Below, piece by piece: positions 69 to 37,916 of a stretch of DNA of 64,000 nt; the stretch's first letter is position 1; every line of letters starts with the position of its first letter. Under the pieces are notes generated by a model, which did not search any database, was not told the DNA's origin, and worked only from the letters and a program-made list of their open reading frames with translations. The position numbers and the translations under genes are program-made. This stretch comes from an uncultured virus (IMG/VR IMGVR_UViG_3300044986_000368) (Duplodnaviria; Heunggongvirae; Uroviricota; Caudoviricetes), in the IMG/VR virus record IMGVR_UViG_3300044986_000368, one strand, 5' to 3'.

Positions 69-417
69 GCCAGCGTGCCTCCACGGCCTTGTAGAACTTC
101 TTCATCATCTTCCACGCTGAGACTTTCACCTCCCGGTCAGGCCGAATCTCATCGCACCATTCGGGGATATACTGGCAGATGAAGTCAGCCATCATGATTT
201 CGATGGTCAATGGCTCCTTGATCCCGTTGCCAGCCAGATGCGCTTTAACGTCCGCTATGAGTGACGACCATCCGTAGCTGACAAGAACCACCTTGGTCTC
301 CTCGACCTTGTAGAACCAGCCGTAGGGGTCGCCAACAACCGTGCAATCTGGGAACATACCGCGAAGGCGTTCTTTGGTGAACTTGGGGATTTCGATGGTG
401 CGGATTAGCTCTTTCAT
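1..417 (-). CDS. 5' part of a 211-aa Cys-rich hypothetical protein spanning the circular junction (continues 63932 to 63714)
   Basis: ATG at 417 overlaps the giant-gene stop (ATGA); manual translation MKELIRTIEIPK...ERRAAICATCPKN|TDQLTEFCIGCH...CAACHCNLRLKV...CWMNEA*. Confidence 0.85.
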   Translation of the reverse strand, partial: MKELIRTIEIPKFTKERLRGMFPDCTVVGDPYGWFYKVEETKVVLVSYGWSSLIADVKAHLAGNGIKEPLTIEIMMADFICQYIPEWCDEIRPDREVKVSAWKMMKKFYKAVEARWHEGQVSQEEAERRAAICATCPKN

Positions 418-3400: not shown

Positions 3401-6400
3401 TGGAGTCCTTTTGCTGCTTCTTCGACATTCCTTCCGGAGGATTCTTGAAGCCTTGGCGATAAAGTTCCTCAAAGCGGTAGATGATTTGAGATGCCTTGTT
3501 TTCAGCAAGCTCAATTTCAGCAGCTTCTTTCTCGGCTGGATCAATCTCCTGACCTTTCTCGGCACGCTTTTTGAGCACATCGGCACCCTTCTTGCGTTTG
3601 GCGCGAGTTGCTTTCTGGGATGGCGTATCAGTAGCCGATTCCTGACCAAGGAGTTTTCTCAGATTGGCCTGAGCTTGAGCTAAGAACTCTGCTTGTTTTT
3701 TGTCAATTTCGTCAAGCGGAATGGAGTCCAATTCATTAAAATCCGCTGCCGACAGAGATGCTTTAGCGGCTGACTTGGCTTGCTGTTTCCTTCTATTGAG
3801 GTAAGCAATCTTGCGAAAGAGGTCTTTGGTTGCCTCCCAAAGAGATTTCGTTTCAGAATCCATTCCCTCCTCCGCTTCACGGAGAAGAGAGGTATTAGAA
3901 TCTTCCTCCTCGGCCTCAGCAGCAGCCGTAGCAGCTTGTTCATCCACCTTCGGAATCTCATTGGACAGATTCGCCTTCACCTGTGGCAGTGAGCCTTCCA
4001 TCGCGTTATTCACGGCCTCGGTGCCGTTATCCTTCATCTTCTTCTCAGCTTGAAGAATGCCGAACGCAAAAGCCGTGCGCGGGTCTTGGTAGATGAGATT
4101 GTTCACATAGAGGTTCTGACCACGCAATGTCGCCCCTTGCTGGAAGAATGCCGCAATCTTGTCATGCAGCTTTTGAGCCTGTGCTCTCTGACTTGGCGTT
4201 CTTGCCTTGTTGATTGCCAGATATACGCGCTGCAAAAGTTGGGCTTCAAGAATGGTCTGCGCAATCGGGCCACCTGTGTCTCTGCCATACAAGCCAAGAG
4301 CGATGCGGAAATCCATGTCGCCTTTGAACTTGTTGAAGATGTCCTCCAGCGTCATGCCATCCTTTTCCAGCTTGGAAAGCAACTCTTGGGCGGCGTTTTG
4401 ATAGGCGTTGAACCACAGCTTGGCGTGCGGGAATGACTCAAAATCCTTGATTGGACGGCCTTCGTAGTCAGCGAAATTGGGCAAGCCTTGCGCTGCTTCC
4501 GTAATATCTGCCTTGAACTGGCTGACAGCCGAGCGTTGCGCTGGCGTTTGAGCGTAGGAGTAACGAATGTCCGGCGAAGTAGTCTGGAACCGCTGGGAAA
4601 GCGGGATCACGTTGCCGGACTCGTCGTAGGTTACGGGGTCGGCGGATTTGATTTGAGACGGATCGAAAACAACAAAAATCGCATCAAGTGGCCCGCCGTC
4701 GAAAGTGTTTTTGATAATGACCGAATCATGCCCATTTTCCAGCGCCTCATCAATTCTGTCGGCATACGATTGTTCGCGGTATTCGTTGCTATTGTCGTCA
4801 AACACCATCGGATTATTCAAGAACAGATAGGCGTTCACCATCTGGCCTTCTGAGGTGTCCAGATAACTGTCAGGCAGTGACGCAGATAGTGCGTCAATAT
4901 CCGCCTTTGCGTCAACTCCAAGAGCCTCTAACGCAGGCGCAAGCTCATCGCGAAGGAATTGCATCCTTGATGAGATTATGTATTCAGGGTCGTCGGAAAT
5001 GCTCCCGTCAAGAAGAGTAGCAATGCTAATGTCGCCCCACTCTGAAACGAATTCGCCAGATCCAAACGGAAGATCGTTAACTTCCTCGACTGAGGTCAAT
5101 TCCACGGCTTCGCGGATCAACGCCTTAATTGCCTTATTGTAATCACGAACCCACTCCTCGCCGCTTTCGGACGCTTCAAATTCTCGGCGAATGTAATAAT
5201 CCTTGCTTGATGCCGTTTCCTTTGAGCCCGCAAAGAAGAATCCTTTCTTAGCCGATTCTGCAAAAGTGTTGCTTCCTAGCTTAGATTTGTCAAAAACGGT
5301 TATCGGCGTTTGAGACTTTGAGCCGTGAAACGCATTGACGACATAACGAACGCCAGTTTGGAAATCAAAGGTCGAGGCATTTTTGATAATCTGATCTCCT
5401 CCAGCCGCCTCATCGACCATCCGCTGCGCCTTCTCCATGTCGCCCGCTTCGACGGCAGCGAGGTATTCAGAATCCTTCTGCGCAACCTCAGAACTTGCAG
5501 CAAGCGAGTAACGCACGCTCACATCCTCGTCCTCAACAGGCTCAAACTCAGAGCCGCTCCAAGTATAGCGTCCAGTGTCCTCAACACGCTTGATGGCGGC
5601 TTCAATGCGTTGCTCAACCTCGGCGATGAATGGCTTCTTCGCGTCTGCCAGCACTTCATCTGATGCCAGCCATTCGTCCAACGCGCTTGTGTCATCTTGT
5701 GCGGCATCAATAATGTCCTGCGGAAGACGCTTGGCGAGTTCGGCATCGACGTTCTCAATCGAGTATTTGCCAGCAGCGCGAAGCTCATTGGCAACCTTGT
5801 CCCATTCCACATCATGCTGCCTGCCTTTGCGAGCAATCTCCACCAACGGCTCCAGCTTTGGATCACGCACGTCAGGTGATGCCAGTTCCCATGCAGCAAG
5901 AACGTCGTTATCCTGAATCGCGCTGTTGTATTCCGATTCCTCAAAACGCCGCTGAACGTCGTCGGGCCAGCTATCGACATCCTCGTTGTCAGCGGTGAAG
6001 CCTTCGATGCGCTGAATCGCATCATCCAGCGTGAGTAGCGCAGGATTGCTGAGAGACTGCATCGCGCCTGTGGGGAGGATGACGATGGAATTTGGCTCAA
6101 ATTGGTCGTTTTGCAGCGCCGCATTGTCCGCGTACATGTCCTGCACGATCTTGTCAAACTCGGCTTGCGTCAGGTTGTCCACAAGCTCGCCAGTCTTGCT
6201 GAAAAGCTCGGAAAGCGGCACAGACGGGCCATTCTGTTTTGGCATCTGCTCGTAGGCTTTGCGCACGCCAAAGAACACTTCAAGCTGACGCGGAGTGTAG
6301 GACGTGGAACGCGCTGCTTGTTGACCTGCCGCGCTGTTTTGGGCGGATTCGGAGGCGTAGCTATACCTTATTCCAGTATCAATACCTCCACCAAACTCAA

Positions 6401-9400
6401 AAGCATCGAAAATAGCTTCAACTTGCTCAATTTCAGAGCGAATCATATCGCCAGATTGGCCGATTTTAACCATCTGCAACGAAGTTCTGAGAGCGTTCAA
6501 AACCTCAGTGAGATATTTCTTCATCGCTTCCACAAAGCGCATCCATCCGGTTTCTGTGGTGAAGTCTTGGCGGTTGAACTGAATCAGTTGACGGCCAATT
6601 TCCATCGTAAAGGCTGGCGCTGTTTGTGATTTGACCAATCTGGCGACAATCTCATTTATATCATAAAGTGGAATGTTGGGGTTGTAAAGATTCCACGCTG
6701 ATACGACGATATTAGCAACTCTTGAATCGCCACGGCTCAATCCATCTGAAGATGCTTGAAGCATGTCAATCAGCATTGAATTGTAATAATTGACCTCAAA
6801 GTCTTCAAAATCCTGTTTTGAATCAGAATCTTTCCATTTTTGGTAGGCATTGAGATGCTGAGCGGTATGGATAACCTCTTCTTGTGACATGTCGTAAATG
6901 CCGGTGAATGCAGTTACAGCGTCAGCGTTTTGCAAATCAGTCAAATTTCTGGTGTCGAATCGCACCTCAATTGCTGGATTAGCTCCCGCAACATATACAC
7001 TAGCAGGTCTACCTTCTCCCGTTCTTTTGTTGGTAATGCGAACAGGAAGTATCGCGGCATCGAAGGAGTAACGCGATAAAATAGATTTAAGTCCAAATTC
7101 TTCCAGGGCTTTCGCCCTCTCAGTTGCCGAAAGCGCATTCCAATTTGTTTTTGAAACGCCTTCTCGAATTGCAGCCTCTCTTGCAGAGTCGTCTGCTCTC
7201 GAAATTGACGCCATGCCGATGCCACCATCTCGCGTGGCGATTCCTGTTTGAACAAATGGCTTGTATCCATAAATCAGTATTTGATCCCCACCCACCGTCA
7301 CATCAGGACGTGCCTTGTGAGCGTTCTTGAGAGCACCGCGAAGCAGACGAACAACGTCCTTCATGCTGGACAGCGTAGGCTCGCCCTTTGGCTTGCCCGT
7401 CCACTTGCGCCAGATTTCCTTGATGTAGTCCCAGAATTGCTTCCAGACGCCATCTGTGGGGATGGTTTTCGTCTCCTCGATATACTTTTGCAGGCGTTCA
7501 TCGAGAAGAGCGACCTCATGCGCCGGGTTCGTCCTCCAGTCGGCGTATTGCTTGTAAACCTTCGCAAGCTCATCAAGCTCCTCTGCCGGGAACATCTCGC
7601 GCAGGAATCGCATGATTTGCGCCTGCTGCTTGGCAGGAAGAAGCCAGAAGCCTTTGTGCATGTTTTCGTGCGTCAAAACACGCTTTGCTGCGGCAACAGC
7701 AGGTGTCACGCCATCTTCCTTGGCTTTTGCGCGGTCAAGATCGGTGACAACCACGCGGTCTGTGAAGATGAACGACATGCCGTTCTCGAACACGCCTTCG
7801 ACATTCTCAGCCTCGGCAGCAGCCACAGCACCGGGGAATTGCGCCTGATACTTGGCACGCTCACGACGCATATCCGCAGAAGTTCCACGCCATGTGAACA
7901 CGGCACTTGGCACCTCTCCTGAGTTTTGCAGTTCGCCGATTGCCTGCTCAACATCCGCAGACTTGACCTGATTTCTGACAGGATTCGTGCGTTTTGGGCT
8001 AAACAGGTTGGAAATGGACTGAGCGTTTTGCTTCTGCTGCTCCTGCTCAAGCTCGCGTTCTGCCCGCTCAAAGGCGTTGGCCTCCTTTTGCGCCTTGGGA
8101 GACGGAATAAATCCCTGAGCCAGCGCATCAGTCGCAGCCTTCCTTTTGGCGTTCTTTGCCTGCCTGCTATCTGTAGGCTTGATGGCAACACTTGGGTCTT
8201 CAAAGAAATCGCTCTGAACGAAGTCGTTGAACTCCTGATCGCTCAAACTCTTCAAGAACTTGTCCAAATCGTCCACCATCGTCCTGCCGCCAGCGTTGAG
8301 AATCTGCTCAACACGGCGATTGACCAAAGCCGGGGTCTTGGCTTCTAAGGATTTTTCTGTTGACTTTACGGTTTCTTCGGCGGAGACTTTAGGAACCGTG
8401 GGAATCGACCCTTCCACGGGCTGAAGCTCAGCACTGGCTACCGCCTCTCCCTTAGCCGAGGGAGGGGCGGTTTCGTTTGTGGCTACCGTTGTGGTTTGGG
8501 GAGATGGATATGCGGCGTCGAGAAAATCCTTGAATGCCTTTTGAGATGCTTTGAGTCCAGCCGGAAGGGCTTTGCCGGTCCACTCCTTCCAAACTTTGCG
8601 AGAAATTTTATTGTCGGGATGAAGCAGATCGGTCCACTGCTTATTTTGTATGGCAGACATCAATGCCTCGCCGTTCTTTGCGGCTACTTCAGGGCGAATA
8701 TCTTCACCTTCGTAAATTTGGGCAAACCTTTCGGCCTTGGGTGCCCAGTTTGGTTTTACGCCTCGTGCTTGCTCAAGCTCTTGCCTTGCGACATCTAACC
8801 GAGTGGGCGCTGCCTGAACTGGTTCGCCAGTTGCCCCCGGTTGAAAGATGTAGAGTTCACCCTGCTTGATGTAGCCTTCTGGAAGTCTAATGCCGTAGGT
8901 GTCAACGGCTTCGGCAGACACCGGCTTCCTATCTTCAAGAGCCGACTGGATATTAGATGCGTGTTGTTTTTGTGCTTTTTTGTCAGTTATTTTAGACAAA
9001 GCAACCTGTCTCTCTTGGTATATCTCAGCGGCATAGGGATAGGCAGCCATGTACGCGTCTGACGCCCCAAACTCTGCTTGGTACTTTCTTTTTATTTCTG
9101 AAATCGGGGTAGAGGCCCATTCTTTTGCCTGTTTTGCTATGCTCGTTAATTCCTCCGGCGTCATCTGCTCCGGCTTAGTCGCATCCCGCTCACTGCCAAC
9201 GCCTCGCAACATGACCTTGCCTTCGGTAGCGGGCGTCGGCGTCCCTTGCGGGGTGATTGGTTGCGCGAATGCAAATGTTTCACCTTGGCGCACATAACCC
9301 ATGTCAGTTGCCATCTTAACCAAGTCATGCTTTTCCAAGGTTTTAGCGACCATGAACGGCTCACGATCTTCTAATTGAGCAACGGTGAAACCCTTATTTT

Positions 9401-11843
9401 GTTTGCGAAGTTCCGCAAAGGCATCAGCCTTGGCTTTAGTCGCTTTTGCCTCTGCTTGTTTCCACTGCATGAAAGATTGCTCTTTAGCATCAGCCTCTTT
9501 TTTACCCTTGCTGGCATTGATCGAATAGTATCGTTCTTTCAGCTTATCAGCTTTTTCAGCGAGTTCATCTACTTGAAATTGAGCGCGAATATCGGCGGCA
9601 AACTTTTGGGCGTTTGGCCCTATGATGTAGCCTCCGCCGCTCCCAGTGCGTGCAAGATTACCCCCAAGCTGCCGGGGTGTCTCGGTAACTTGAGACTGAC
9701 TGCTGATGCCTGAAAGTGCCTCAGGTTGCTGTTGAAGTTCGCCTCCTGTTCCTCTCTCGTCAGGGGTGGTAGTCCGAACCTCGCCCGTTGCGCGTCGTAT
9801 TCCTTTCGCCTCGCTTCCGCCTTGGCTTTGAGCAAAGCCTTTTTCGAGGTCTGGTCTTGCAAGCTGCATGTCTTGGATGGCTGCTCGCACGCTTGAGAAC
9901 ACTTCATTGATTTTGGCGTTTTCATTGTATTCGTAATCACCCCATTGATTTTTGGGTGTTTTGTTGAGATTATCTTTATCTTTCTGTGCGTTTTGGAGCT
10001 TGCCTTGCAGATAGGCTCGGCGTTTTAACCAATCTGGTTCGGGCAGTTTTTCCAAATCTGGAACTGAAATTGCCGCGTAGGGCTTCATTAAATTGGTGCC
10101 AACTACTTCTTTTTGGCTTGGCGCTGGACTGAGTAGCTGATCGCTAAGGCTTGCTTCAGCGGTTTCCCGGCCTTCAACTCCGTCTTGAGGTTCTTGGAGA
10201 AGGCTTTCTTCGTCGGGGATTTCGATAAGGACATCTTCGGGTGGTGTTGTGGGTTGCGCTGGAATGACGGATTCAAGTCCGGCAGAAACTTCAGGGGGCA
10301 GTTGACCGCGCATTTTCGCAGCGGCGTCAGCAATGATGGCGCGATTGCGTTCAGCGCCTTCGGAAAGGGGAATTGCGCCAGCCTGTGTTGGCGCTGGCAT
10401 TTCAACTACCGCAGGCGCTTCAGCCGCTTGCTCAGGCTGAATTGGCGGCTGAGCGGTTTGCGCTTGAATTGCTTGAAGGTTTTTGGTGATTTGTTCGTTT
10501 GCATTGAGAACTTCTTCTGCGGTTGCGCCTGAAATTTCTGTGCCGGGAACTCCTTTTGTGGCATTAAGATTTGCTCTTGCAACCGGAGTCTCAGGCGGAG
10601 GCGGCATTGAAGGCTCTTCTGCGGGGGCGGCGGGAGTTGTTGGCGCGGCAGCAGTTTCAGTTGCAACTGCTTCGGGAGTCGGAAGCATAAGCTCCTTCGT
10701 TCCGGCAATAGTCTTTGAGGCAAGTGCGCTCGGAAGAGACAAGCCAACATCACCAAGCATCTCCATGTATGCCTCGGTTGGGTTGATTTCCTGCCCCATG
10801 GCATATTGAGCACCAATTTCACCCGCTCCCGCCGATCCTGTTTCAATCGCAGCGCCACCCAATATTCGTGCCACATTGCCTGATGGCGTGAATTGTTGTT
10901 TCGCAGCCGTGGCAGCACTTTTGACAGCCGCATTCAACGCCGGATTGAGCAATGCCGCGTCAACCGCCTCCTTGGAGGCAATATCAACACCAGCGTTGAC
11001 TAGCGTTTTTTGAGCAGCGCGAGCGGCGGCACGCTCTGGAATTGTCATCAATGCGCCAGCGCCCTTCAATCCAAGCCCTTCGACAGCGCCAATAACTGTT
11101 CCGCGAATAGCCCCGGCTTTCAAACCCTCAGACATAATGTCGGGGTTCTGTTTCAGATATGCAGAAATCTCATCCGCCGTCATGTTGGCGGCAGCGCCAT
11201 TTGTTCTTTCGTTGAGGATGTCGTAAATCGCTGGCCCTGCCTCCATTAAGGTATTGGAGATGGCACCGCCAGCGGTGGCTCCAGCAATACCCGTGAGAAT
11301 TGCACCAGGGCCAGTTTCAAGTCCAGCGCCAGCACCAAGAGCACCACCAATGGCATATCCAGCAAGTCCTGTTGCTCCGCTAATCAACGCATTGGGGGCA
11401 GACTGAACTGCCTGTTTGAAGGCAGCTCCCGGATGTCTTGCTGTCGTTCCCAAATATCCCCCAAGAGCTTCAATGGTTTCGAGTGGCCCGCGAGCCTGTT
11501 TGTAAGCCTCCTCGCTTTCCTTAAACTCCTGCATCAAAGCCACATCTTCCGCCGTGCGAGATGCTTCCTGCTCTTTTTGCAGAGCGCCCATTTGAGCAAG
11601 ATATTGAGCGGCATCTTGTTCGTCACCGGTCAGAGCATTGAAAGTCGTGCCAACACCCGATGCCATCTGCCTGAAGCCAACATCAAGAGCACCGCCCAAC
11701 TGAGACAGATAACCGGGCTCTTGACCGCGTGGAATTGCTGGTTTGGGGGTGAAAAATGGAGCCAATTCTTCAGGCGTTGGCTGTCTGTCAGCCTCAACCT
11801 GAAACCTTCTTCCATCCTTGAGTTCGACAAGATATTTGGGCAT
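414..11843 (-). CDS. Giant (3809 aa) polyvalent internal virion/ejection protein with ART-PolyVal-like ADP-ribosyltransferase and HExxH metallopeptidase-like domains
   Basis: Last of a run of virion genes; Ala/Gly-rich N-terminus; FHGS..FDKSK.GSN..GFFF..YL.LNNP..GHDSVII..VVFDPSQIKSADP motif; LTHENMHKG; repeated RYS linkers; helical C-terminus. Confidence 0.8.
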   Translation of the reverse strand: MPKYLVELKDGRRFQVEADRQPTPEELAPFFTPKPAIPRGQEPGYLSQLGGALDVGFRQMASGVGTTFNALTGDEQDAAQYLAQMGALQKEQEASRTAEDVALMQEFKESEEAYKQARGPLETIEALGGYLGTTARHPGAAFKQAVQSAPNALISGATGLAGYAIGGALGAGAGLETGPGAILTGIAGATAGGAISNTLMEAGPAIYDILNERTNGAAANMTADEISAYLKQNPDIMSEGLKAGAIRGTVIGAVEGLGLKGAGALMTIPERAAARAAQKTLVNAGVDIASKEAVDAALLNPALNAAVKSAATAAKQQFTPSGNVARILGGAAIETGSAGAGEIGAQYAMGQEINPTEAYMEMLGDVGLSLPSALASKTIAGTKELMLPTPEAVATETAAAPTTPAAPAEEPSMPPPPETPVARANLNATKGVPGTEISGATAEEVLNANEQITKNLQAIQAQTAQPPIQPEQAAEAPAVVEMPAPTQAGAIPLSEGAERNRAIIADAAAKMRGQLPPEVSAGLESVIPAQPTTPPEDVLIEIPDEESLLQEPQDGVEGRETAEASLSDQLLSPAPSQKEVVGTNLMKPYAAISVPDLEKLPEPDWLKRRAYLQGKLQNAQKDKDNLNKTPKNQWGDYEYNENAKINEVFSSVRAAIQDMQLARPDLEKGFAQSQGGSEAKGIRRATGEVRTTTPDERGTGGELQQQPEALSGISSQSQVTETPRQLGGNLARTGSGGGYIIGPNAQKFAADIRAQFQVDELAEKADKLKERYYSINASKGKKEADAKEQSFMQWKQAEAKATKAKADAFAELRKQNKGFTVAQLEDREPFMVAKTLEKHDLVKMATDMGYVRQGETFAFAQPITPQGTPTPATEGKVMLRGVGSERDATKPEQMTPEELTSIAKQAKEWASTPISEIKRKYQAEFGASDAYMAAYPYAAEIYQERQVALSKITDKKAQKQHASNIQSALEDRKPVSAEAVDTYGIRLPEGYIKQGELYIFQPGATGEPVQAAPTRLDVARQELEQARGVKPNWAPKAERFAQIYEGEDIRPEVAAKNGEALMSAIQNKQWTDLLHPDNKISRKVWKEWTGKALPAGLKASQKAFKDFLDAAYPSPQTTTVATNETAPPSAKGEAVASAELQPVEGSIPTVPKVSAEETVKSTEKSLEAKTPALVNRRVEQILNAGGRTMVDDLDKFLKSLSDQEFNDFVQSDFFEDPSVAIKPTDSRQAKNAKRKAATDALAQGFIPSPKAQKEANAFERAERELEQEQQKQNAQSISNLFSPKRTNPVRNQVKSADVEQAIGELQNSGEVPSAVFTWRGTSADMRRERAKYQAQFPGAVAAAEAENVEGVFENGMSFIFTDRVVVTDLDRAKAKEDGVTPAVAAAKRVLTHENMHKGFWLLPAKQQAQIMRFLREMFPAEELDELAKVYKQYADWRTNPAHEVALLDERLQKYIEETKTIPTDGVWKQFWDYIKEIWRKWTGKPKGEPTLSSMKDVVRLLRGALKNAHKARPDVTVGGDQILIYGYKPFVQTGIATRDGGIGMASISRADDSAREAAIREGVSKTNWNALSATERAKALEEFGLKSILSRYSFDAAILPVRITNKRTGEGRPASVYVAGANPAIEVRFDTRNLTDLQNADAVTAFTGIYDMSQEEVIHTAQHLNAYQKWKDSDSKQDFEDFEVNYYNSMLIDMLQASSDGLSRGDSRVANIVVSAWNLYNPNIPLYDINEIVARLVKSQTAPAFTMEIGRQLIQFNRQDFTTETGWMRFVEAMKKYLTEVLNALRTSLQMVKIGQSGDMIRSEIEQVEAIFDAFEFGGGIDTGIRYSYASESAQNSAAGQQAARSTSYTPRQLEVFFGVRKAYEQMPKQNGPSVPLSELFSKTGELVDNLTQAEFDKIVQDMYADNAALQNDQFEPNSIVILPTGAMQSLSNPALLTLDDAIQRIEGFTADNEDVDSWPDDVQRRFEESEYNSAIQDNDVLAAWELASPDVRDPKLEPLVEIARKGRQHDVEWDKVANELRAAGKYSIENVDAELAKRLPQDIIDAAQDDTSALDEWLASDEVLADAKKPFIAEVEQRIEAAIKRVEDTGRYTWSGSEFEPVEDEDVSVRYSLAASSEVAQKDSEYLAAVEAGDMEKAQRMVDEAAGGDQIIKNASTFDFQTGVRYVVNAFHGSKSQTPITVFDKSKLGSNTFAESAKKGFFFAGSKETASSKDYYIRREFEASESGEEWVRDYNKAIKALIREAVELTSVEEVNDLPFGSGEFVSEWGDISIATLLDGSISDDPEYIISSRMQFLRDELAPALEALGVDAKADIDALSASLPDSYLDTSEGQMVNAYLFLNNPMVFDDNSNEYREQSYADRIDEALENGHDSVIIKNTFDGGPLDAIFVVFDPSQIKSADPVTYDESGNVIPLSQRFQTTSPDIRYSYAQTPAQRSAVSQFKADITEAAQGLPNFADYEGRPIKDFESFPHAKLWFNAYQNAAQELLSKLEKDGMTLEDIFNKFKGDMDFRIALGLYGRDTGGPIAQTILEAQLLQRVYLAINKARTPSQRAQAQKLHDKIAAFFQQGATLRGQNLYVNNLIYQDPRTAFAFGILQAEKKMKDNGTEAVNNAMEGSLPQVKANLSNEIPKVDEQAATAAAEAEEEDSNTSLLREAEEGMDSETKSLWEATKDLFRKIAYLNRRKQQAKSAAKASLSAADFNELDSIPLDEIDKKQAEFLAQAQANLRKLLGQESATDTPSQKATRAKRKKGADVLKKRAEKGQEIDPAEKEAAEIELAENKASQIIYRFEELYRQGFKNPPEGMSKKQQKDSIIKAFRDQVRNPVSFEQFAERLANLKVGEEVAERMFLTASRERADLVRMKDFKIGKRKVEIADKQASRLIYATEERFRQGSKDLTKSTDGDSINKAFRDQVSDPVSESDFAKRLSKLNVSQDVASRLFKTAAREKLDQEAMAAYDLLEGPKAQSKIAREIARMRLGEEIPLKTPIPWLQLFSQRASTVEAYRQRVFDAIASSDVFKNISDAQKTKLADLFAESWNGQREKIINRMIDKNRDMLANQDKKKAAKALNDSRNRILEAVNLGVFDNDELVAILGDKFGIKMKFTEAEKAKLRDLAEQLQDDTLNKAKRNKLGREFLMELEAASQVPMAELMANFWVSSVLSGWNTIISIGLSFLNATGINIVGIHVARAVTAFAKGDVAGAVKAITTMFSDYARHLLSFPSAMNRAWQYLWTGDISFLESGANDPFKKVNSLKEVARYQVVADLIAKDPNAVKAVLGRFMQFMSRLLTALDGFNVMVTKAGTLHAAMLQSNITPEQIRDITLKSDLKIYKDRIVKSEFGGNYPTSLRDKAYLNSLAEAEMYADLSKLGLKVENQDYLAAESAMTLDPTGVGGHFYNLVRSFDTRIMTSTKERLKQAEADWAVKKDPWNALNYVVWNTLNFIAEQGTNITGVRFARFAGNKFNQSVSFIPLAGLLRLYEADNAKLENAQQAFRDSIWRNQIVGVVVTAIGVQLIRAISDEPDDKKRGWFINGGWNNLTPAQKKQKLSEGQREYTLGFGDKVFNYQNWLPSALLAAIGNVSDMIRYSPDEWKSKGFANQVITAGVSGVQSSLEIPALAQLGQLFANDLATKDPAEKAIGRLGQVLAGWAGGFMPRFLKDIDYMTAPDMRRYTTFYEKVASHIPVYRRYVGNDYYDILGNKIQKNAYPGSRDFGKLKDEPEYQMLGALNARGIWLTPANAEYRMVGKGRYRRRLTQEEADAYSLETGKLYKQMILRYGPRALQMPAERAKDYISDKADAMRDLALQRAMRR

Positions 11844-14980: not shown

Positions 14981-15946
14981 TTATCGAGTTTGAGGAGTGG
15001 AACCTGCCGACTGCGGGAACCAAAACGGCATCGTAGGCCGAATCGCGCCACGATTTTGCTTAAGTCCCTGATTGAGAATCTGATAGCACTTCTGCCAACG
15101 TTGCTCGGCGGCGGCTTCTTCATACGCACCGTCATTTTCCAGCTTCACGGCGATCAATGCGTGCTTCAAAGCGCCAAGGTTGTCAGGCCAAACAAGGTCG
15201 GTTTCAGCCACGGCAGGGACGTAGCGACGTTTGCACAGGCAGCGCAGCCAGGGCTTGCCGTCGCTCCGGCTTGTCATCGTGCCAGTCTTGTAGCGGCGGT
15301 AAATTGGGTTCGTCTCGCTTGGCTCGTAAACGGAAAGCTCAACGGGAGTGCCGCTCACAACCACGTTCAGCGTCACGGAACCAAGGGTCGCAGGCTTAAC
15401 GATCTGCGTTATGGTCATGGACGTTGCACCCGTCACCGTGGTATTTGCCAGCGTAAGGGCCAAACCAGCGTTGCCAGACGAGTCAAAAACCTCGTCTCCG
15501 TTCGTGTCGTAACCGTAAACGCGCACGATTTTACCTGCGTCAGCGGCGTTGGCGATGACAAGCTGCGGCAGTCCAGCATCGGTCTGAAACTCCATCGTGC
15601 AGCAGTCGCCTTGGTCAATGATCGTGCGAAGGTTCTCATCCATTGCCTCGTCATCGAAATACCCCGGCCCCGAAGTCATGAACTCAACCATTCTCGGATA
15701 TACGCCAGTGGGATAGTTCACGCGGGTAACTCCGATGATTGATTCCCAGCGTCTAGGAAGCGTGATGTAGCCTGTCGAAGTCTGGAAATCTACCTGACCA
15801 TAGGTGTTTTTCCACGCGCCAGAATTTATGATCCGCTCGCAGGCTTGGTTCAAATACGGCAAAAACAACGTCGAGTTAACGTCGTTGGGATCAACTTGCG
15901 TGTATAGCGCAGCACGGGCGGCGGCAACTGTTAGACCTGTGGGCAT
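14981..15946 (-). CDS. Putative head-tail adaptor / tail tubular-like protein
   Basis: YLNQACERII...YITLPRRWESI N-terminus and helical C-terminus typical of podoviral adaptor proteins; first gene of the operon. Confidence 0.55.
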   Translation of the reverse strand: MPTGLTVAAARAALYTQVDPNDVNSTLFLPYLNQACERIINSGAWKNTYGQVDFQTSTGYITLPRRWESIIGVTRVNYPTGVYPRMVEFMTSGPGYFDDEAMDENLRTIIDQGDCCTMEFQTDAGLPQLVIANAADAGKIVRVYGYDTNGDEVFDSSGNAGLALTLANTTVTGATSMTITQIVKPATLGSVTLNVVVSGTPVELSVYEPSETNPIYRRYKTGTMTSRSDGKPWLRCLCKRRYVPAVAETDLVWPDNLGALKHALIAVKLENDGAYEEAAAEQRWQKCYQILNQGLKQNRGAIRPTMPFWFPQSAGSTPQTR

Positions 15947-16000
15947 TGCCCGATTCTAATCCGTGCGGCATTTCTGGCAATAGGTAATTTTCATATTTGA

Positions 16001-16065
16001 GCCGAACTTCCGCTGGAGCCGACAGACTCGCTTTGGCTCGCTTGCGGCTCAGCTATTGGTTAGCT
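16001..16065 (+). mobile_element. attC-like site A (65 bp)
   Basis: R'' GCCGAAC, L'' GCTG(G)AGCCG(A)C, L' GCGGCTCAGC, R' GTTAGCT; two extrahelical bases in the left arm. Confidence 0.85.
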
Positions 16066-16329
16066 GAAATAAGTTTGCAGCCAATTCCCACACGGAAGCG
16101 GATACCAAATGTAGCCGTAAAAAGAATTGTCGCCACTTTGATGTTGCTCGACGTATACCTCTCCGAATTGCAAGTCTGGTTGCGCCTCGCCTTCGGGGGT
16201 GTCCACGATTCCTTGCAGCCCCCAAAGAGAGGTGTCCGAATTGTGCGCGATGAGTTGTCGCAAAAAATCAGCTAACAAGGTGGTCGAGGCGACCGCCACC
16301 GGCTCCGTAGTAGGTTTGGGATCGTTCAT
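16060..16329 (-). CDS. Cassette gene 1, hypothetical 89 aa
   Basis: Start lies in the loop of attC B; TAA stop lies inside the R' box of attC A. Confidence 0.75.
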   Translation of the reverse strand: MNDPKPTTEPVAVASTTLLADFLRQLIAHNSDTSLWGLQGIVDTPEGEAQPDLQFGEVYVEQHQSGDNSFYGYIWYPLPCGNWLQTYFS

Positions 16330-16384
16330 AGTCTAGGAATGGGTTGGGGTTGCGGGTAGCGTCGCCTCACCTTCGGCGTTCGCC
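16270..16384 (+). mobile_element. attC-like site B (115 bp)
   Basis: AGCTAAC-AAGGT-GGT(C)GAGGCGAC(C)GCCACC...GGTAGCGTCGCCTCACC-TTCGGC-GTTCGCC. Confidence 0.85.
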
Positions 16385-16731
16385 TCCAAGTCCTCGATCT
16401 TGCGCTTGGCCCTTTGGAGCCGCGTGTAGAGTTCACCAGCGCACCACCACTGCACTTGGTCAGTCGTGGTCATGTCGATGATTGTGCCATCGTAGTCTTG
16501 GCCGTGGCTCTCGCCATCTGTGCCCGCGCGGAAGCTCATTTCTTCCTCGCCGTATTCGATTTTGACGATGTAGTCGCCCGTCTGGTCTAGGTGCCATTCA
16601 ACGAGATCGACGCCATCGGTAATGCCGATAGTTTCGACTATCTCTTCCAGCCATTCGGGAGGACAACCCGGCTCTGCTACCAACCTCTGGGGCTGGTCTT
16701 GGGTCATTGTTAGTGTGCTTGCTTCGGTCAT
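16333..16731 (-). CDS. Cassette gene 2, hypothetical ~132 aa (MTEAST.../MTQDQ...)
   Basis: Acidic ORF; ATG 1 nt after the MTase stop, inside the attC C loop; the 213-aa call in the ORF track overextends into the MTase. Confidence 0.7.
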   Translation of the reverse strand: MTEASTLTMTQDQPQRLVAEPGCPPEWLEEIVETIGITDGVDLVEWHLDQTGDYIVKIEYGEEEMSFRAGTDGESHGQDYDGTIIDMTTTDQVQWWCAGELYTRLQRAKRKIEDLEANAEGEATLPATPTHS

Positions 16732-16796
16732 GTTATTGGGCCTTTGTCGTGTTGTCCTGGTCGTGCCCCAGGGTTGGCAGAGATTGAGCGTTGGGC
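16661..16796 (+). mobile_element. attC-like site C (136 bp)
   Basis: GGACAAC-CCGGC-TCT(G)CTACCAACC(T)CTGGGGC...GCCCCAGGGTTGGCAGAGA-TTGAGC-GTTGGGC. Confidence 0.75.
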
Positions 16797-17509
16797 AGAA
16801 ACAAATCACCCTGCGCGAGTTCGCGCTGGATGCGTTCGAGTGCCGTGGCATAGTGCGTCGGGTCTTTCTCGATGCCGATGAATCGGCGTCCAGACCGCAC
16901 GGCGGCGACTCCAGTGGTTCCGCTCCCCATATACGGATCAAGCACCGTTGCGCCATCGGCGAGCTTTGCTGCATCCATGCACCATTGCATCAGGATCACG
17001 GGTTTCTGGGTCGGATGCTGCGACTTCTCGCCGCCTTCGCTTCCGCGATACGCTCCGCTCCATAGGTGCCGGAATGCGCGGGGTTTAGTTCCCTTCTTGT
17101 GCCATGCGTATTCGCCTTCGGCAATTCGCACCTTGAGCGCGTTTTGCGTCACCTTGTCCCAGAAATACCATTGCCCGATTCTTGGCGGGATTGCGTGGCA
17201 GTAGTTGTTCACTCCCCAAAGGATCACGTCCGGGTATTCCATCAGATGCGACGGGTCGAAGATTTCATCGTCGCCGATCACCATGCCGAAGCGTTGGATT
17301 CCTTTCTGGGTGCTTTTGCTTGGATCATAGGCGATCCCATACGGCGGATCAGTGATGCACGCATCGACCTGCCCGAGAGTTGGCAGCACTTCCATGCAGT
17401 CCCCGAGATACAACGTCACCCGGCCACACGAAGAGGCATAACAAGCGCATAGAGCCAACGCCGTTTGGCGTTGGTCCTGTATGCGTGAGTCTGTGGCGGC
17501 GTGGCTCAT
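16733..17509 (-). CDS. Cassette gene 3: beta-class N6A/N4C DNA methyltransferase
   Basis: LYLGDC, TDPPYG, HPTQKP and LDPYMGSGTTG motifs. Confidence 0.92.
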   Translation of the reverse strand: MSHAATDSRIQDQRQTALALCACYASSCGRVTLYLGDCMEVLPTLGQVDACITDPPYGIAYDPSKSTQKGIQRFGMVIGDDEIFDPSHLMEYPDVILWGVNNYCHAIPPRIGQWYFWDKVTQNALKVRIAEGEYAWHKKGTKPRAFRHLWSGAYRGSEGGEKSQHPTQKPVILMQWCMDAAKLADGATVLDPYMGSGTTGVAAVRSGRRFIGIEKDPTHYATALERIQRELAQGDLFLPNAQSLPTLGHDQDNTTKAQ

Positions 17510-17523
17510 GCTAGTCGTTCGCC
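17436..17523 (+). mobile_element. attC-like site D (88 bp)
   Basis: GCATAAC-AAGC-GCAT(A)GAGCCA(A)CGCCG...CGGCGTGGCTCATGC-TAGTC-GTTCGCC; the MTase ATG lies in L'. Confidence 0.88.
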
Positions 17524-17524
17524 T

Positions 17525-17881
17525 TCACGCTGCGCAGTCGAGCATGTCCACAATATCATGTTCCACCATGTGGAGCGCACCGATGGCCTGATATGCGGTC
17601 ACGTCCGACTCCTGACCGTAGCGGCGGATTACGCTCCGCAGTTCTCGCCTGAGCATCGCGCCAGCATCTCCGCTGGCTCCGTCTCCCCACTCTTGCTCCC
17701 ATGCTCTCATGGTAGCGGCAGCAAGTCCGTGCTCACCATCCAGCTTTGAGCAGCGGTGTCCCTTGAGACGGTGCCTCACATCCTCGCAGACTGGACAAAC
17801 ATAGCCCAAAAGGCGAACAAAACGGTGCATCCAAGTCCTCGTGGCTTGGACTGCTGTGTCAGTGGTTTCTAGGGTGCTCAT
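17525..17881 (-). CDS. Cassette gene 4, hypothetical 118 aa with CxxC
   Basis: MSTLETTDTA...CPVC...; start lies within the attC E loop. Confidence 0.7.
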   Translation of the reverse strand: MSTLETTDTAVQATRTWMHRFVRLLGYVCPVCEDVRHRLKGHRCSKLDGEHGLAAATMRAWEQEWGDGASGDAGAMLRRELRSVIRRYGQESDVTAYQAIGALHMVEHDIVDMLDCAA

Positions 17882-17935
17882 TGGTCTTCTTGGGTTGTGG
17901 GCTTCGTTTCGGACTGGCTGACCTCCGCGTTCTGG
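17812..17935 (+). mobile_element. attC-like site E (124 bp)
   Basis: GGCGAAC-AAAAC-GGT(G)CATCCA(A)GTCC...GGACTGGCTGACC-TCCGC-GTTCTGG. Confidence 0.8.
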
Positions 17936-17951: not shown

Positions 17952-17980
17952 ATCTTACGCCAATTATCCCTCAGAATCAA
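17952..17980 (-). promoter_or_regulatory. Sigma70-type promoter directed into the cassette array
   Basis: TTGATT-17 nt-TAAGAT with the genome-wide GCGTAAG motif. Confidence 0.65.
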
Positions 17981-19349
17981 CCTCTTTTCGCAAAACCTCA
18001 AACCTGAAGTGCTTGCCGACAAGCTCCATGTCCACGGTGCGGTAGCGTTCACCGTCACGAACCTTGTGGAAGAACATCTGGCGCTGGAAATTGGGCTTCT
18101 CCTCTTCTTTGCCCTTTTTCCATGAGGGGCCGTCGTTCTTGACGCCAATCTTCTTGATCTTGATGAGGTTGTCGGCGTCCTGCTCAATGGCGCGGGATTC
18201 ACGCACCTCGCCATCGTTGTTCACCTGCGAAGGCATGATGATGTGTGCCCCCGTCATCTTGGCGCACTGCTTGGTGGTAGCCGTGATGTGAGCAACCTCG
18301 CGTTCTCGATTTTGAGAATTTTCGGTAGTCTTGCATAGCTGGATGTAGTCAATCATCGCAACAAGCCTTTTGCCAGCGTTCAATTTACGCGACCTGCGTG
18401 AAATATCGCGGCAGATTTGCTCAATCGTCTTTCCAGCCACATCCACGATGCTGAAGTCCCATTTCGCCGCCTTGTTTGCCACAAGGCCAAGGTTGAGCAT
18501 TTCATTGCGCGTCAGCATCCCCGTTTTGAGGTTTTTGGCGTCAATCTTGCCCTGAGAGCACAAAATGCGCTTCACTTCCGCCTTGGGCATCATTTCGTAG
18601 GTGTAGTCAACGGCGCAACCACCCTCGATAGCCACCCATTCGAGCATTTGTCGGCACAAACTGGACTTGCCATCACTGGACTCAGCCGCCACAACCGTCA
18701 GGCATCCGGGTTCAAGACCGCCCATGATGTCATCAAATTCGGCGATACCAGTCGAAACCCCGGTGATTTTCCGCCCCGACTTCGCCATATCCTCGGCGTC
18801 CTGCAAGACCTCGTTAATGAGTTCCGCCATCGGGCGATGCTCCAAATCAGGGCTGCCATCGTCATTTGCAGCCTCCACAACGCTTTTAATGACGTTCTGG
18901 AGGGTATCGGCAGCGGAAGAACCCTCCGACTCGTTAAAACGCAAAAGAACGTCCATTCCAGCGGCAAGAACGCCAATCATGGCCCTAAGCTGGTATTTCT
19001 GCCGCACAATCCCGGCGTAGTAGCCGAAATGCGACACCATCGGGATGTTCGAGTAGAAGACACTGAGCCTCGCCGGGCCTCCCATGTTGTCGAGAAGCCC
19101 TTTTTCACGGAGATTGATTGTCACGGAAGGCAGATCAATCGGCCTTCCAGCGTTGAAAAGCTCCAAGAAAGCCTCGATCAGCCAGCGGTGATGGACGTGG
19201 AAGAATGAATCCACGGGCGGGCACTCCTCAATCAGCCTTGGGTGGTGGAAAATCGAGGAAACAACCGTCTGTTCAGCCTCCTCAGACCACGGAAGCTGGG
19301 CGTCTTTGAAGGACGCTAGAAGCTGTTCGATTGTGGGAGGAGGTGTCAT
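17964..19349 (-). CDS. dnaB: DnaB-like replicative helicase
   Basis: EAEQTVV N-domain, TGVSTGI..FD..MGGL.PG, AAESSDGKS, IDYIQL, SQVN, RESRAIEQDAD. Confidence 0.92.
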   Translation of the reverse strand: MTPPPTIEQLLASFKDAQLPWSEEAEQTVVSSIFHHPRLIEECPPVDSFFHVHHRWLIEAFLELFNAGRPIDLPSVTINLREKGLLDNMGGPARLSVFYSNIPMVSHFGYYAGIVRQKYQLRAMIGVLAAGMDVLLRFNESEGSSAADTLQNVIKSVVEAANDDGSPDLEHRPMAELINEVLQDAEDMAKSGRKITGVSTGIAEFDDIMGGLEPGCLTVVAAESSDGKSSLCRQMLEWVAIEGGCAVDYTYEMMPKAEVKRILCSQGKIDAKNLKTGMLTRNEMLNLGLVANKAAKWDFSIVDVAGKTIEQICRDISRRSRKLNAGKRLVAMIDYIQLCKTTENSQNREREVAHITATTKQCAKMTGAHIIMPSQVNNDGEVRESRAIEQDADNLIKIKKIGVKNDGPSWKKGKEEEKPNFQRQMFFHKVRDGERYRTVDMELVGKHFRFEVLRKEVDSEG

Positions 19350-21595: not shown

Positions 21596-22387
21596 TTAGT
21601 AATTTTCAGCTTCCTCTCGCGTGATGAAAAAGTGAATACCTGAAGCACACTCATCTTGCCAGTCTTCAGAAAACGGCTTTTTGGGCCTGACGATTTCGCC
21701 TTTTTTGTATTCAAAGGCTGGATCGTGCGAGGAAAAACCCACATCCACTTCGTTGTCACCATCATAAATTGCCACAACAATAGCCTCAGAGCATCGACAC
21801 TTGCGACCAAAAGCATTAGAGCGTTTTGCGGATTCAGGAATGCGCAATTTTGCAATACTTCCATTTTGCAGCTTCTTCCAACCAATAATTTCCCCGTCTG
21901 GAAGAATGCGTGTTTGTGCAATGATTAATGTTGCGTATTTGGCACCGTGAAGATCAGCATCGCAAAGGTCAGCATCGCGAAGATCAGCACCGTGAAGGTT
22001 AGCACCGCAAAGATCAGCACCGCGAAGGTTAGCACCGCAAAGGTCAGCATCGCGAAGATCAGCATCGCGAAGGTTAGCATCGCGAAGGTCAGCACCGTGA
22101 AGGTTAGCATCGCGAAGGTCAGCATCGCGAAGATCAGCATCGCGAAGGTTAGCACAGCCAAGATCAGCATCGCAAAGATCAGCACCGCGAAGGTTAGCAC
22201 CGCAAAGGTCAGCATCGCGAAGATCAGCATCGCGAAGGTTAGCATCGCGAAGGTCAGCACCGTGAAGGTTAGCGACGCGAAGGTTAGTTTTTGATTTGAT
22301 GGCCGTCGCAACTGCCTCATAAATAGAAGCGTAGTCGCCCTCATGTATCACACTGCCTGTAAACCTGTTCTTAATTTGTGTTTTCAT
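21596..22387 (-). CDS. Pentapeptide-repeat protein with DUF5758-like C-terminus
   Basis: Tandem A(D/N)Lxx repeats; GWKK...LRIP...KCRCSEA...CASGIHFF. Confidence 0.92.
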   Translation of the reverse strand: MKTQIKNRFTGSVIHEGDYASIYEAVATAIKSKTNLRVANLHGADLRDANLRDADLRDADLCGANLRGADLCDADLGCANLRDADLRDADLRDANLHGADLRDANLRDADLRDADLCGANLRGADLCGANLHGADLRDADLCDADLHGAKYATLIIAQTRILPDGEIIGWKKLQNGSIAKLRIPESAKRSNAFGRKCRCSEAIVVAIYDGDNEVDVGFSSHDPAFEYKKGEIVRPKKPFSEDWQDECASGIHFFITREEAENY

Positions 22388-30302: not shown

Positions 30303-32331
30303 TGGTTTAGTGACAGCATCCGAGTACCAATGCGGCAAAGAAAATCGCAAAGGCCAGTGTGACGGCGAATTGGATCAGGAAATGCGGCTCCTGTGGTTCT
30401 AGGGGGTTCATTCGTGAATCCTCCAGCCATGGTTGCGGTTGCCGCAAGCATTCACGTCACCGAACACGCGAGAGCGCGTGCGCTGGCACTTGGTGCATTG
30501 CTGCGTGTGTAGTATGGCAGCGCCACCGATGCCCATGATGCCAGGGTTTTCCTTGCAGCCTCCGATATTTTGCCATTTATGCCGTTTGCATTTTTCGTTC
30601 ATGTCGTTTCCTTTCGTTTTGTTGTTTATCGGAGCTTAACGCTCCCCGCTACTCTGCCAGCTTTAGCCGACAGAGCAGACGGGAGAGTTATTCAGCTTGT
30701 TTCCATCCTTCCGCCTCGCGTTCCCCGCGAAGCTCCCGCGCTTGTTCGGCACGCTCGGAGAGTCGGCGAACATGGGCGCGGTGACTGTCCATTTCTTGCC
30801 GTGTGGCGAATTTGGATGGCAGAATCTCCAAATGGAGCCGGGAAGCGAGCCGATAAAGCTCGTCAAGGCTCATTTGGGCGATGGGTACGCGAAGCTCGCC
30901 AGCCTCGTCTCTCCTTACTTCGCAGGCCATGACTTTCCCGCTTGGGAGGCGGTCAAGGCTAAGGCCGACTATGTTGTTGGTTGCGCAGAAATCTGCTGGA
31001 TTGTGGTTTAGTTGCATGTTCATTTGTTTTAGTGGTTTGTGCTTTGCCCGGTTTTAACTCGCTAGACATGGGCAACGTCTAACGAGAGGGTTTGCGCCCT
31101 TTGCTCCCCTCCCATAAAGGAAGGGGAGACAAGGAGGCAATCAGAGCCAGCGTTGTTTCAGAGCATAGCCAGCATCTTTTTCAGTTTCACCACGGAAAAG
31201 AACGCTGGAAAGGCAATAGACAAGGTGGAAACCCATGTCCATTCCACAGCCGCCGACAACCACGGAGCCTTCGTCGTTATATCGCCATTCCAGCACATCC
31301 GAAACGATGCTAGAGATGTTCGCAACCTCGCCATTCAAGATGATCAGCGGAGTAATCCGGCGAGACATGCCAGATGCGGAAACGTGTTTTAGCATCGTGT
31401 AAACTGTGGAGCCGGTAGAAATCCAGCCCTTCAGCTTCTCGATTTGCTGTTGTCGGTACGCTTCTTGCCCTGCTTTTTTTCGGCAGCTTTTCGCATTCGT
31501 TCCAGTATTGGGGAGAATCGGTTTTGATAATCTGCCCCTCTTTTGTTTTCATGTAGTGCATAGTCGTTTCTTTCTGTTTGTTGTTTTTGTTCTTACATTA
31601 TAGCCGCAGCGAGTGCGGCTAGTATCAGTCCGCCGTAGATGAAGAGCCAGCGTATAAAACTGGCTTGATCATGGGCTTGCTGGCGTCGCCTTGCGGCTTC
31701 TCTGTAATGTTGCTGCATGTGGTACGGCATAGAGTTAGGCCAGAACCTCCGTGATTGGTTGTTTCTCGCCTCGCTCGATTGCCCCCGTGACATGATGCCG
31801 CAACAAAGCATGGGCACGAATGGCGGCAAAATTAATTTTCCATCCCGTACCCTCGCATGAGGGGCAATTATCACGCTGAATGCCTCGCTTACAAGGGCAG
31901 CGCGCCCCCGTTTTTGGCTGATAGTATTCTGTTCTCATCTGTTCTTTGGTTTGTTGTGTCGGCAGTTTTCGTCATGCGGGACGGGCTTATAGGGCCGAAA
32001 TTTTGCGGGATTTAGGGTTGCCCGCGCCCTTTTGTCAATTCTCCACCAGAATCGTAACGGCGTAGTTGTCAAAAACTGCCGCAAGGATCGTTTCGCCTGC
32101 TTTCTTGGCGCGTCGTTTGAGCGTCTCCAAGGCTTTAGAGTGATCTAACTGGCAATGTTCAAGCGAGCGTTCAACACCTCGATTCCAAGGTAAGCCGAGA
32201 ATTTTTCGGATTGGCTGGAATTGGAGTGAGGCATCTTTTGCGCCGTCGCGCTTGTCGTAGATTGGATATTCTGTTTTCATTTTTGTGCTTTGGTTTCTAC
32301 CCGGCTAATTCCGGGCAGAATGCAGAGCACG

Positions 32332-37501: not shown

Positions 37502-37548
37502 CACGACCAGCGCACCAGAGCGGTTGTCCTGCATCCGATTTGTTCGGC
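37456..37548 (-). mobile_element. attC-like site F (R' degenerate, GCT)
   Basis: Minus strand GCCGAAC-AAATC-GGAT(G)CAG(G)ACA(A)CCGC...GCGGTGTCTGATCC-GAGAC-GCTCCCT. Confidence 0.75.
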
Positions 37549-37877
37549 TTTCGGTGCTTGATTTCATTGCGGTCATTCGTCGTTCGCGCCAAGACAGCGA
37601 GCGATTCTTTATGCGCGGCGGGTGCTGGGAAATGTTCTGCCTTCTGCGTAATGTCTGGCCAGAGGCTCAACCTTACCACTCATGGACTGACGACGTGACT
37701 CTTGGTGTTGGGCAACATGTGGCGACGAAAATAGGAGATCATCTTTACGACATTCGAGGGCGCATCCGCAGGCCGTCATTGTATCAGCCCATGACGCTGA
37801 CATCGTGGCCGTCACTGCGTGGCGGTGATCGTCCGCATCGTTGGGCAAAGCACTACCGCAGTGAGCCGAACCAATAG
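37494..37877 (+). CDS. Cassette gene 5: putative papain/transglutaminase-fold protein
   Basis: GGCWEM..L...HVATKI...YDIRG (Cys-His-Asp); start in the attC F loop, stop in attC G. Confidence 0.65.
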   Translation: MNNTTSAPERLSCIRFVRLSVLDFIAVIRRSRQDSERFFMRGGCWEMFCLLRNVWPEAQPYHSWTDDVTLGVGQHVATKIGDHLYDIRGRIRRPSLYQPMTLTSWPSLRGGDRPHRWAKHYRSEPNQ

Positions 37878-37916
37878 CTCACCGACGCGAAGCGTTCGGT
37901 GCAGCGCAAGTTCTAC
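37865..37916 (-). mobile_element. attC-like site G (52 bp)
   Basis: Minus strand GTAGAAC-TTGC-GCT(G)CACCGA(A)CGC-TTC-GCGTCGGTGAGC-TATTG-GTTCGGC. Confidence 0.82.

Follow-up and report, generated by a model that had tools for sequence, protein, structure and literature searches.

The 64,000-nucleotide stretch of the uncultured virus IMGVR_UViG_3300044986_000368 analysed here (the window) carries two arrays of attC sites, the recombination sites of integron cassettes, whose genes lie on the strand opposite to the usual one. PHROG matches to a terminase large subunit (37.9–39.7 kb) and a replication initiator (19.9–20.7 kb) point to a tailed-phage genome. The first array, of five sites (A–E, 16001–17935), lies without an integrase behind the gene for a DnaB-like replicative helicase (17964–19349, minus strand; phrog_19, E = 7e-64), its fixed upstream neighbour, while the second, of two sites (F and G), adjoins the terminase gene. 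The first packs its five sites into 1.9 kb and the second its two into 0.46 kb, and both are clusters of attC sites lacking integron integrases (CALINs), defined as at least two attC sites within 3 kb and no intI.

Sites A–E have their top strand on the plus strand. Site A (16001–16065, 65 nt) is a short fixed terminal site whose bottom strand, read in the frame of the AAC triplet at its R' box (the AAC frame), gives Asn-Gln-stop. The bottom strand of site B (16270–16384, 115 nt) encodes the end of gene C with its stop (16380–16333) and the beginning of gene B, and that of site C (16661–16796, 136 nt) encodes a 19-residue end of a methylase, its stop and the beginning of gene C. Site D (17436–17523, 88 nt) reads Asn-Asp-stop in the AAC frame, and site E (17812–17935, 124 nt), at the far end of the array, encodes a 17-residue orphan tail. 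In the second array, site F (37456–37548) and site G (37865–37916, 52 nt), the latter a short fixed terminal site adjoining the terminase stop, lie on the minus strand.

The sites were identified with a purpose-built detector of attC geometry (AAC, 5 nt, L'' with a bulged base, stem, L', 6 nt, GTT), which finds A–E with the top strand on the plus strand and G and a further hairpin, H, with the top strand on the minus strand. It gave no match at the survey threshold in 258 kb of shuffled sequence, the scores of A, E and G on the detector alone falling inside the shuffle range. A covariance model trained solely on 22 bacterial chromosomal attC sites matches, in descending order, D, E, F, B, G, C and A, all on the predicted strand and with 17–52 bits (D, 52 bits; E, 39.6 bits; F, 35.4 bits), the weakest match being A (E = 0.1). 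The spacers are 5/6 nt in A, B, C, D and G and 5/5 nt in E, and the AAC/GTT triplets are present at both R boxes of A–E and G; in F the R' triplet is GCT rather than GTT. Agreement between R'' and R' in the window is 7, 5, 5 and 7 of 7 positions, R'' of B pairing with R' of A at 7/7. An Rfam scan of the window gave no match, and an exact-repeat search missed the attC sites, which are too diverged. Hairpin H (30634–30693) has attC-like geometry (score 17.5) and no covariance-model match; its orientation is the usual one, a gene at 30688–31023 stopping in its R'' box and a gene led by a Shine–Dalgarno (SD) sequence coming next.

All four genes between A and E are encoded on the minus strand, the bottom strand of the sites, and gene F likewise lies on the bottom strand of its own sites, so that none of the five window cassette genes shows the usual, although not strict, arrangement of a top-strand gene whose end lies at R'' or ahead of it. 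Each gene begins inside an attC site, with a head of 17–23 codons up to R''. Gene B (16060–16329, 89 residues) has its first 18 codons inside site B and a TAA that overlaps R' of A. Gene C (16333–16731, 132 residues) has its head in site C, where an alternative ATG at codon 9 also lies, and takes its last 15 residues from site B. Gene D (16733–17509, 258 residues) encodes a DNA methyltransferase (phrog_67, E = 2e-42 over residues 30–241), residues 1–23 of which lie inside site D and residues 240–258 come from site C, whereas gene E (17525–17881, 118 residues) has a 22-codon head inside site E and its own stop. In the second array, a fixed phage gene (36599–37501, plus strand) takes its last 13 residues from site F, joined at AG|C (37460–37462), and is followed by gene F (37494–37877, plus strand, 127 residues; phrog_4814), which has its head in F and ends with Asn-Gln-stop in G.

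The peptides, stops and starts quoted in an earlier note on this DNA were all found on the minus strand. The AAC frame of site B gives the tail NAEGEATLPATPTHS, with its stop 3 nt ahead of the ATG at 16329, and that of site C gives NAQSLPTLGHDQDNTTKAQ, with its stop 1 nt ahead of the ATG at 16731. The stop of the dipeptide ND in site D lies 1 nt ahead of the methylase ATG at 17509, and the orphan tail of site E, NAEVSQSETKPTTQEDQ, ends in an ATGA overlap with the ATG at 17881. The earlier note held that each long site finishes the upstream protein, which is the case at B and C and fails at D and E: the stop of gene E lies 8 nt ahead of the AAC in D, so the D tail is not read, and DnaB stops about 30 nt before E, leaving its tail an orphan. 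Site F was said to behave in the same way, and its tail is indeed used, with an 8-nt overlap of stop and start, but owing to the GCT triplet the tail begins with Ser and not Asn. The stop of the upstream gene thus adjoins the next start at B, C and F, and not at D and E, whose tails go unused.

Gain, loss and exchange of cassettes and their ends

The cassette D unit (16791–17517, 727 nt) is precisely absent from a sister phage (L040/L041), in which the end of gene E is joined to site C at AAC and the methylase cassette is cleanly missing, and the identical 727-nt skip is seen in two sequencing runs from different studies (X9 and X16). Runs also show four other neighbours joined at 16375–16377 and one at 16061, the latter a loose end in X16. 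Site C was found behind three different upstream genes, and gene C carries three different tails in the window and in two related loci (L031 and L083), identity halting at the AAC codon. Among viral loci, 11 pairs have a common attC and different upstream neighbours, and in six listed pairs with a common upstream end five have different sites, the sixth being one site with an indel. Of 93 viral cassettes, 59 have bases flanking R'' and R' that agree at 4/4 positions, as against a mean of 5.8 and a maximum of 14 in shuffles. Sequence comparison thus shows that sites A–G are attC sites and that the units between such sites are gained and lost at AA|C, a cassette model that is held with great confidence. 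The recombination would be performed by an IntI integrase, here supplied by the host, with the AA|C breakpoints as its only footprint. In L031, cassette C stands directly behind a gene of more than 560 codons whose TGA overlaps AAC (L031:3021), in a genomic place that differs from that in the window.

The expectation of the earlier note that conservation of the cassette proteins should begin and end at the R boxes was borne out. Among 36 homologues of gene C, conservation sets in just after R'', where a GTT-compatible dipeptide is found in 29, and ends at a fixed Asn in 30, followed by 28 distinct tails; the proposal that shuffling swaps C-terminal tails holds in these proteins as well as in the three loci above. 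The methylase aligns with its closest relative over residues 21–238, and this relative bears its own, different attC at each end, while another relative without attC sites (L074) has a short N-terminus. The latter is encoded as an ordinary gene (L074:5751–6452) between initiator and helicase, possibly the pre-cassette state of this family. Homologues of gene E without an attC-like head begin 6–10 residues ahead of the conserved block, and one of the three homologues of gene B, which has no PHROG match, carries a different attC-like head. The cultured phages (50,697 records) gave short methylase matches only. At the level of sequence, neither starts outside the attC sites nor conservation extending across the R boxes was encountered.

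Heads are exchanged as well, a feature missed by the earlier note. In ten long-site pairs from eight families, near-identical sites are joined to unrelated bodies at R'', the head frame being kept in the seven families in which an ATG was found, and in run X16 the methylase start is joined to another arm at 17444. Heads thus change at R'' and tails at R'. Since a top-strand crossover takes place in the AAC of R'' in the attC sites considered by Nivina et al. (2016; PMC5027507), which would produce such joints, head exchange may most simply reflect occasional top-strand recombination at R''. Many gene bodies have no start or no stop of their own and obtain it from the sites. The tails and heads are probably tolerated, disordered appendages rather than functional domains; the predicted structure of gene C (mean pLDDT, the predicted local distance difference test, of 61) has low confidence at head and tail and one internal low stretch, which weakly supports disordered ends.

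Each of the two arrays has fixed ends, one of which is a short attC that runs into an in-frame stop at once. The window has site A and cassette E in common with a sister phage in which the interior of the array differs, and in L083 site A is joined at AAC to a different neighbour. At the other end, attC E keeps its position behind DnaB in the sister phage L064, with two stem substitutions. At the terminase locus, the short site G is followed by F in the window, by Y2 and F in G008, and by three other cassettes including Y2 in G007; in G008 a different tail follows the same Asn of gene F, and in G007 the fixed phage gene corresponding to 36599–37501 carries another attC and tail at the same AG|C. 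These orders would fit insertion at the short site, provided that one loss, that of D, is also assumed for the first array. The short fixed sites, to which the earlier note gave no such role, occupy the place of attI in both arrays and appear to serve as the insertion point, transcription entering from the opposite end (no formal search for attI was made); because both read Asn-Gln-stop in the AAC frame, they also close the last gene. The far end of the second array is a fixed AG|C in a phage gene whose C-terminus is supplied by the attC resident at that point, and resembles a secondary-site insertion.

The polarity of the attC-like elements flips across the presumed origin (16001–16065, 30634–30693 and 37456–37916). 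With an origin at 18–30 kb, all three loci would place the bottom strand on the lagging template, as in the rule described in PMC5371416; the GC-skew minimum of the window is at 27182. Replication polarity as the sole cause of orientation was rejected, since L074 has both polarities on the same side of the helicase.

A shared reading frame and the case for coupling

The reading frames of attC sites were surveyed in 351 viral loci and the window, which gave 223 sites (167 unique), and in 124 bacterial genome loci, which gave 124 sites (98 unique); loci from the two pattern scans are those among the matches listed. In one further locus set, sites at threshold 13 were held by 7 of 18 loci. The two-arm pattern was nearly uninformative, as most of its 119 stretches were 93-nt matches without a detector attC, and these loci were kept in the denominator. 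An orientation rule based on the length of open reading frames was dropped because 71 of the 167 sites came out as both, and was replaced by a composition score and a count by cassette. By the composition score, 121 viral sites are antisense, 19 sense, 20 unclear and seven without flank, as against 21, 59, 16 and two of the bacterial sites; counted by cassette, the viral set has 84 antisense, five sense and four unclear (n = 93) and the bacterial set 13, 43 and four (n = 60). The 13 antisense bacterial cassettes (arrays L354, L357, L396 and L417), four of which have a start inside the site, may be miscalls or phage-type cassettes in host arrays.

The earlier note also proposed a survey for reading-frame bias at the bottom strands of phage attC sites, and such a bias is seen. 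Read-through by the upstream gene uses the AAC frame at 66 of the 167 viral sites, compared with eight and seven for the other two frames; the remaining sites have a stop on AAC (17), an earlier stop (34), a gene on the other strand (27) or no flank (8). The bias (P = 6e-12) persists even with the 17 AAC-overlapping stops counted against it, and among the 84 antisense cassettes every read-through (52/52) is in the AAC frame. Of the 121 antisense viral sites, 112 contain a stop in the AAC frame, compared with 29 of the 59 sense bacterial ones. The tails have a median length of 13 residues and are nearly devoid of aromatic ones. An in-frame ATG lies inside 72 of the 121 antisense sites, and in 42 of these the AAC-frame stop falls within 4 nt of it (nine and 12 in the other frames), with the exact ATGA overlap, a single offset of −4, accounting for 28. 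After removal of the pattern-matched sites and the kin of the window phage, the stop is near the ATG in 25 of 46 sites, against six and ten. The frame at R'', unlike that at R', is not fixed across families (33, 43 and 45 of 121). In short, bodies end in frame with the R' AAC, and this frame stops beside the next ATG, most often as ATGA. The claim that a cassette comes with a start of its own and a ready-made stop, all in a common frame, is thereby upheld for the window and for the viral survey; the integron cassette exists here in a widespread variant that is adapted to phage operons.

One array, in the viral contig G011, has 17 consecutive antisense sites, 16 of which are read through in the AAC frame and 15 of which have a start within −11 to +8 of the tail stop; it is followed by an integron integrase scoring above the TIGR02249 cut-off. 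This locus (L487; G011:C1:1920-9559), with recombination genes, the antisense array and an integrase at its end on the same strand, has the appearance of a complete phage integron with reversed genes. One of its sites has TAC in place of AAC at R'.

A phage-adapted integron cassette system with coupling by termination and reinitiation is, in our judgement, the probable explanation. Host-derived IntI would recombine the cassette bottom strands at AA|C, with the short attC acting as the primary insertion point instead of attI. Because the genes are antisense, each site precedes its own gene on the mRNA. On reaching the end of the upstream gene, a ribosome would unfold the 5' arm of the hairpin in the mRNA, stop at the loop and reinitiate on the next gene; with reinitiation at each loop, any cassette order could be expressed from the phage early operon. 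The stop–start geometry is compatible with such a mechanism, and the attC sites fold as RNA in predicted folds, in which a ribosome translating the tail would open the 5' arm. Effects of attC sites on translation were reportedly described by Jacquier and coworkers in 2009. Both the coupling and the action of the integrase are deduced from sequence comparison; given the cassette model, coupling that has been selected for is likely, although this part is held a little less firmly.

Several observations weigh against this explanation. Of the four long sites of the first array, D and E are uncoupled, and the uncoupled position of E is retained in a sister phage. No tyrosine recombinase (PF00589), and no intI beside the array, was found in G001, the nearest record (92% complete), or in the complete sister record G007; G001 and sister records were used in place of the window's own assembly. 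The 36 homologues of gene C were compared as proteins alone, and the attC origin of their ends is an extrapolation. The surveyed loci were chosen by patterns or proteins resembling those of the window phage and are biased to similar sites; gene calls were heuristic, related phages are not independent, and the viral and bacterial scans used different length windows. By the rule used, which did not count GTG or TTG, 49 of the 121 antisense sites have no ATG inside the site. The exact starts are also less secure, since the site holds a second ATG in genes C and E, and in genes B, D and E a GTG or TTG follows 3–8 codons past R''. Finally, among 54 surveyed sites with a well placed stop, 27 tails are read by the upstream gene and 17 are unused, and coupling would therefore be common but not required.

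The same mobile antisense cassettes could exist without coupling, if the shared frame merely ensured termination and each ATG were initiated independently in an A/C-rich open loop; stop and start would then be close because both must fit a short loop, and the ATGA overlaps would be ordinary phage packing. The absence of SD sites, despite which the earlier note has the arrays stay coupled, sits equally well with this account: a match is missing at 31 of the 41 core gene starts of the window phage, most of whose leaders are A/C-rich, much as at 58 of the 72 attC starts. Starts without SD being normal in this phage, the argument from the lack of SD sites to coupling was rejected. The A-rich loops (36% A), a start region more open than the site mean (0.51 versus 0.43, and above 0.6 in 35 of 72) and the unused tails at D, E and the 17 surveyed sites also suit independent initiation. 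The concentration of 28 of 72 sites on the offset −4, on the other hand, together with the rarity of stops near the ATG in the other two frames, is not what this account would lead one to expect, nor is the regularity of the G011 array; moreover, 24 of 72 sites have a start region with mostly paired bases in the prediction (below 0.4), where an upstream ribosome would be needed. Independent initiation is considered unlikely.

The heads could alternatively be annotation artefacts, the genes starting at a GTG or TTG just past R'' and the hairpin arm remaining untranslated. Suitable codons do follow closely behind R'' in three genes, namely TTG in B (codon 23) and E (codon 25) and GTG in D (codon 31). 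Gene C, however, offers none of ATG, GTG and TTG from R'' up to codon 65, well inside the conserved body; homologues that lack an attC-like head begin several residues ahead of those GTG/TTG codons, and the head frame is open into unrelated bodies in seven of eight families, which makes this a very improbable alternative. Least credible of all is the notion that the hairpins are RNA regulatory elements or dispersed repeats exchanged by homologous or microhomology recombination, which would agree with their folding as RNA and with the lack of an integrase in G001 and G007, but not with breakpoints on AA|C with unrelated sequence on one side, a bulged base and 5/6-nt spacers that match attC geometry, recognition with the right polarity by a model of chromosomal attC sites, and R''/R' complementarity far above that of shuffles.

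Phage setting and relation to known systems

Beyond the helicase and terminase loci, a putative σ70-like promoter was read from the sequence at 15953–15980 on the minus strand (−35 TTGCCA, 16 nt, −10 TAGAAT), serving the gene that starts at 15946; it is identical in the sister phage L083 and would mark the end of the operon that carries the first array. The ATG lies just 6 nt past the −10 box (15946–15980), which suggests a leaderless mRNA. The window further contains a pentapeptide-repeat protein gene built of 15-nt tandem units (21596–22387) and an open frame of 3809 residues (414–11843), probably for a virion or injected protein. A protein of 176 residues encoded beside the lysis genes (53010–53540) presumably resembles a PAS-domain protein. 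Sequencing runs that contain the window stretch are mostly lake-water metagenomes; no RNA run was among those listed, which does not bear on its expression.

Integron cassettes are usually viewed as bacterial genes that lack a promoter and have a non-coding recombination site behind them, whereas here the site is read backwards within two proteins. A single frame common to dozens of viral contigs would render cassettes plug-compatible in a phage operon and give phages a precise means of adding and reordering accessory genes, methylases included, without an integrase of their own. It would also account for environmental phage proteins with odd tails that begin with Asn and with heads of low complexity. 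Since one and the same family can be found with attC-derived ends, without them and with different heads, the origin of cassettes becomes a testable question.

The closest bacterial counterparts are the sedentary chromosomal integrons, with which the window sites share the R''-L''-L'-R' hairpin, the extrahelical base, the AAC crossover and R''/R' complementarity, as far as these are described in the parts of Nivina et al. (2016; PMC5027507) consulted. Sites from Verrucomicrobiota and Planctomycetota match the window sites by the covariance model, and four of five verrucomicrobial genomes with similar sites carry IntI. Chromosomal integrons differ in having their genes mostly on the top strand (43 of 60 cassettes) and in the AAC frame, which stops inside 29 of 59 sites as opposed to 112 of 121 antisense phage sites; the window phage, for its part, has no intI, as searched in G001 and G007, and no recognisable attI, for which no formal search was made.

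The phage CALINs of Qi et al. (2023; PMC9892861) are likewise attC clusters without intI in phage genomes, with DNA methyltransferases among their cargo, and five of six phage attC sites tested were recombined by IntI1. The main text of that work, in the portions available, does not deal with antisense genes, starts or stops in attC, a shared frame or the exchange of tails and heads, although its supplement may bear on orientation. Antisense phage cassettes with termini inside attC were not found in the full-text literature searched, in which subscription journals are thinly covered. A precedent for an att site with a short reading frame that aids translation of the next cassette gene is ORF-11 of attI1, which boosts translation where a cassette has a poor initiation region (PMC9410878, as far as consulted); that frame belongs to a single platform site or to the top strand, while here the bottom strand of every cassette's attC carries the end of the previous protein and its own start. 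Cassettes can also insert at GWT sites of the genome, termed attG, according to the portion seen of a preprint (bioRxiv 10.1101/2022.09.11.507474), and the far ends of both arrays resemble such insertions, a cassette there meeting plain phage sequence in a G|NT triplet; site F, however, uses GCT, outside the IntI1 GWT consensus, and several cassettes have occupied that point.

More tentatively, and perhaps doubtfully, phages of Verrucomicrobia- or Planctomycetes-like hosts may share a two-part kit of gene bodies that lack ends of their own (GTT...AAC) and attC modules that hold tail, stop, start and head. An integrase would reassort the two parts by crossing over on the bottom strand at R' and on the top strand at R''; ordinary genes would become cassettes by gaining modules at both ends, and a short attC would replace attI. 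If true, this would amount to a natural system for shuffling protein termini and to a visible route of cassette genesis. Engineered attC sites that encode linkers, and thus combine recombination with an unstructured peptide, have been described (2020; PMC7439510, seen in part), and the window phage would provide the natural version of such coding sites, to which it adds a stop and a start.

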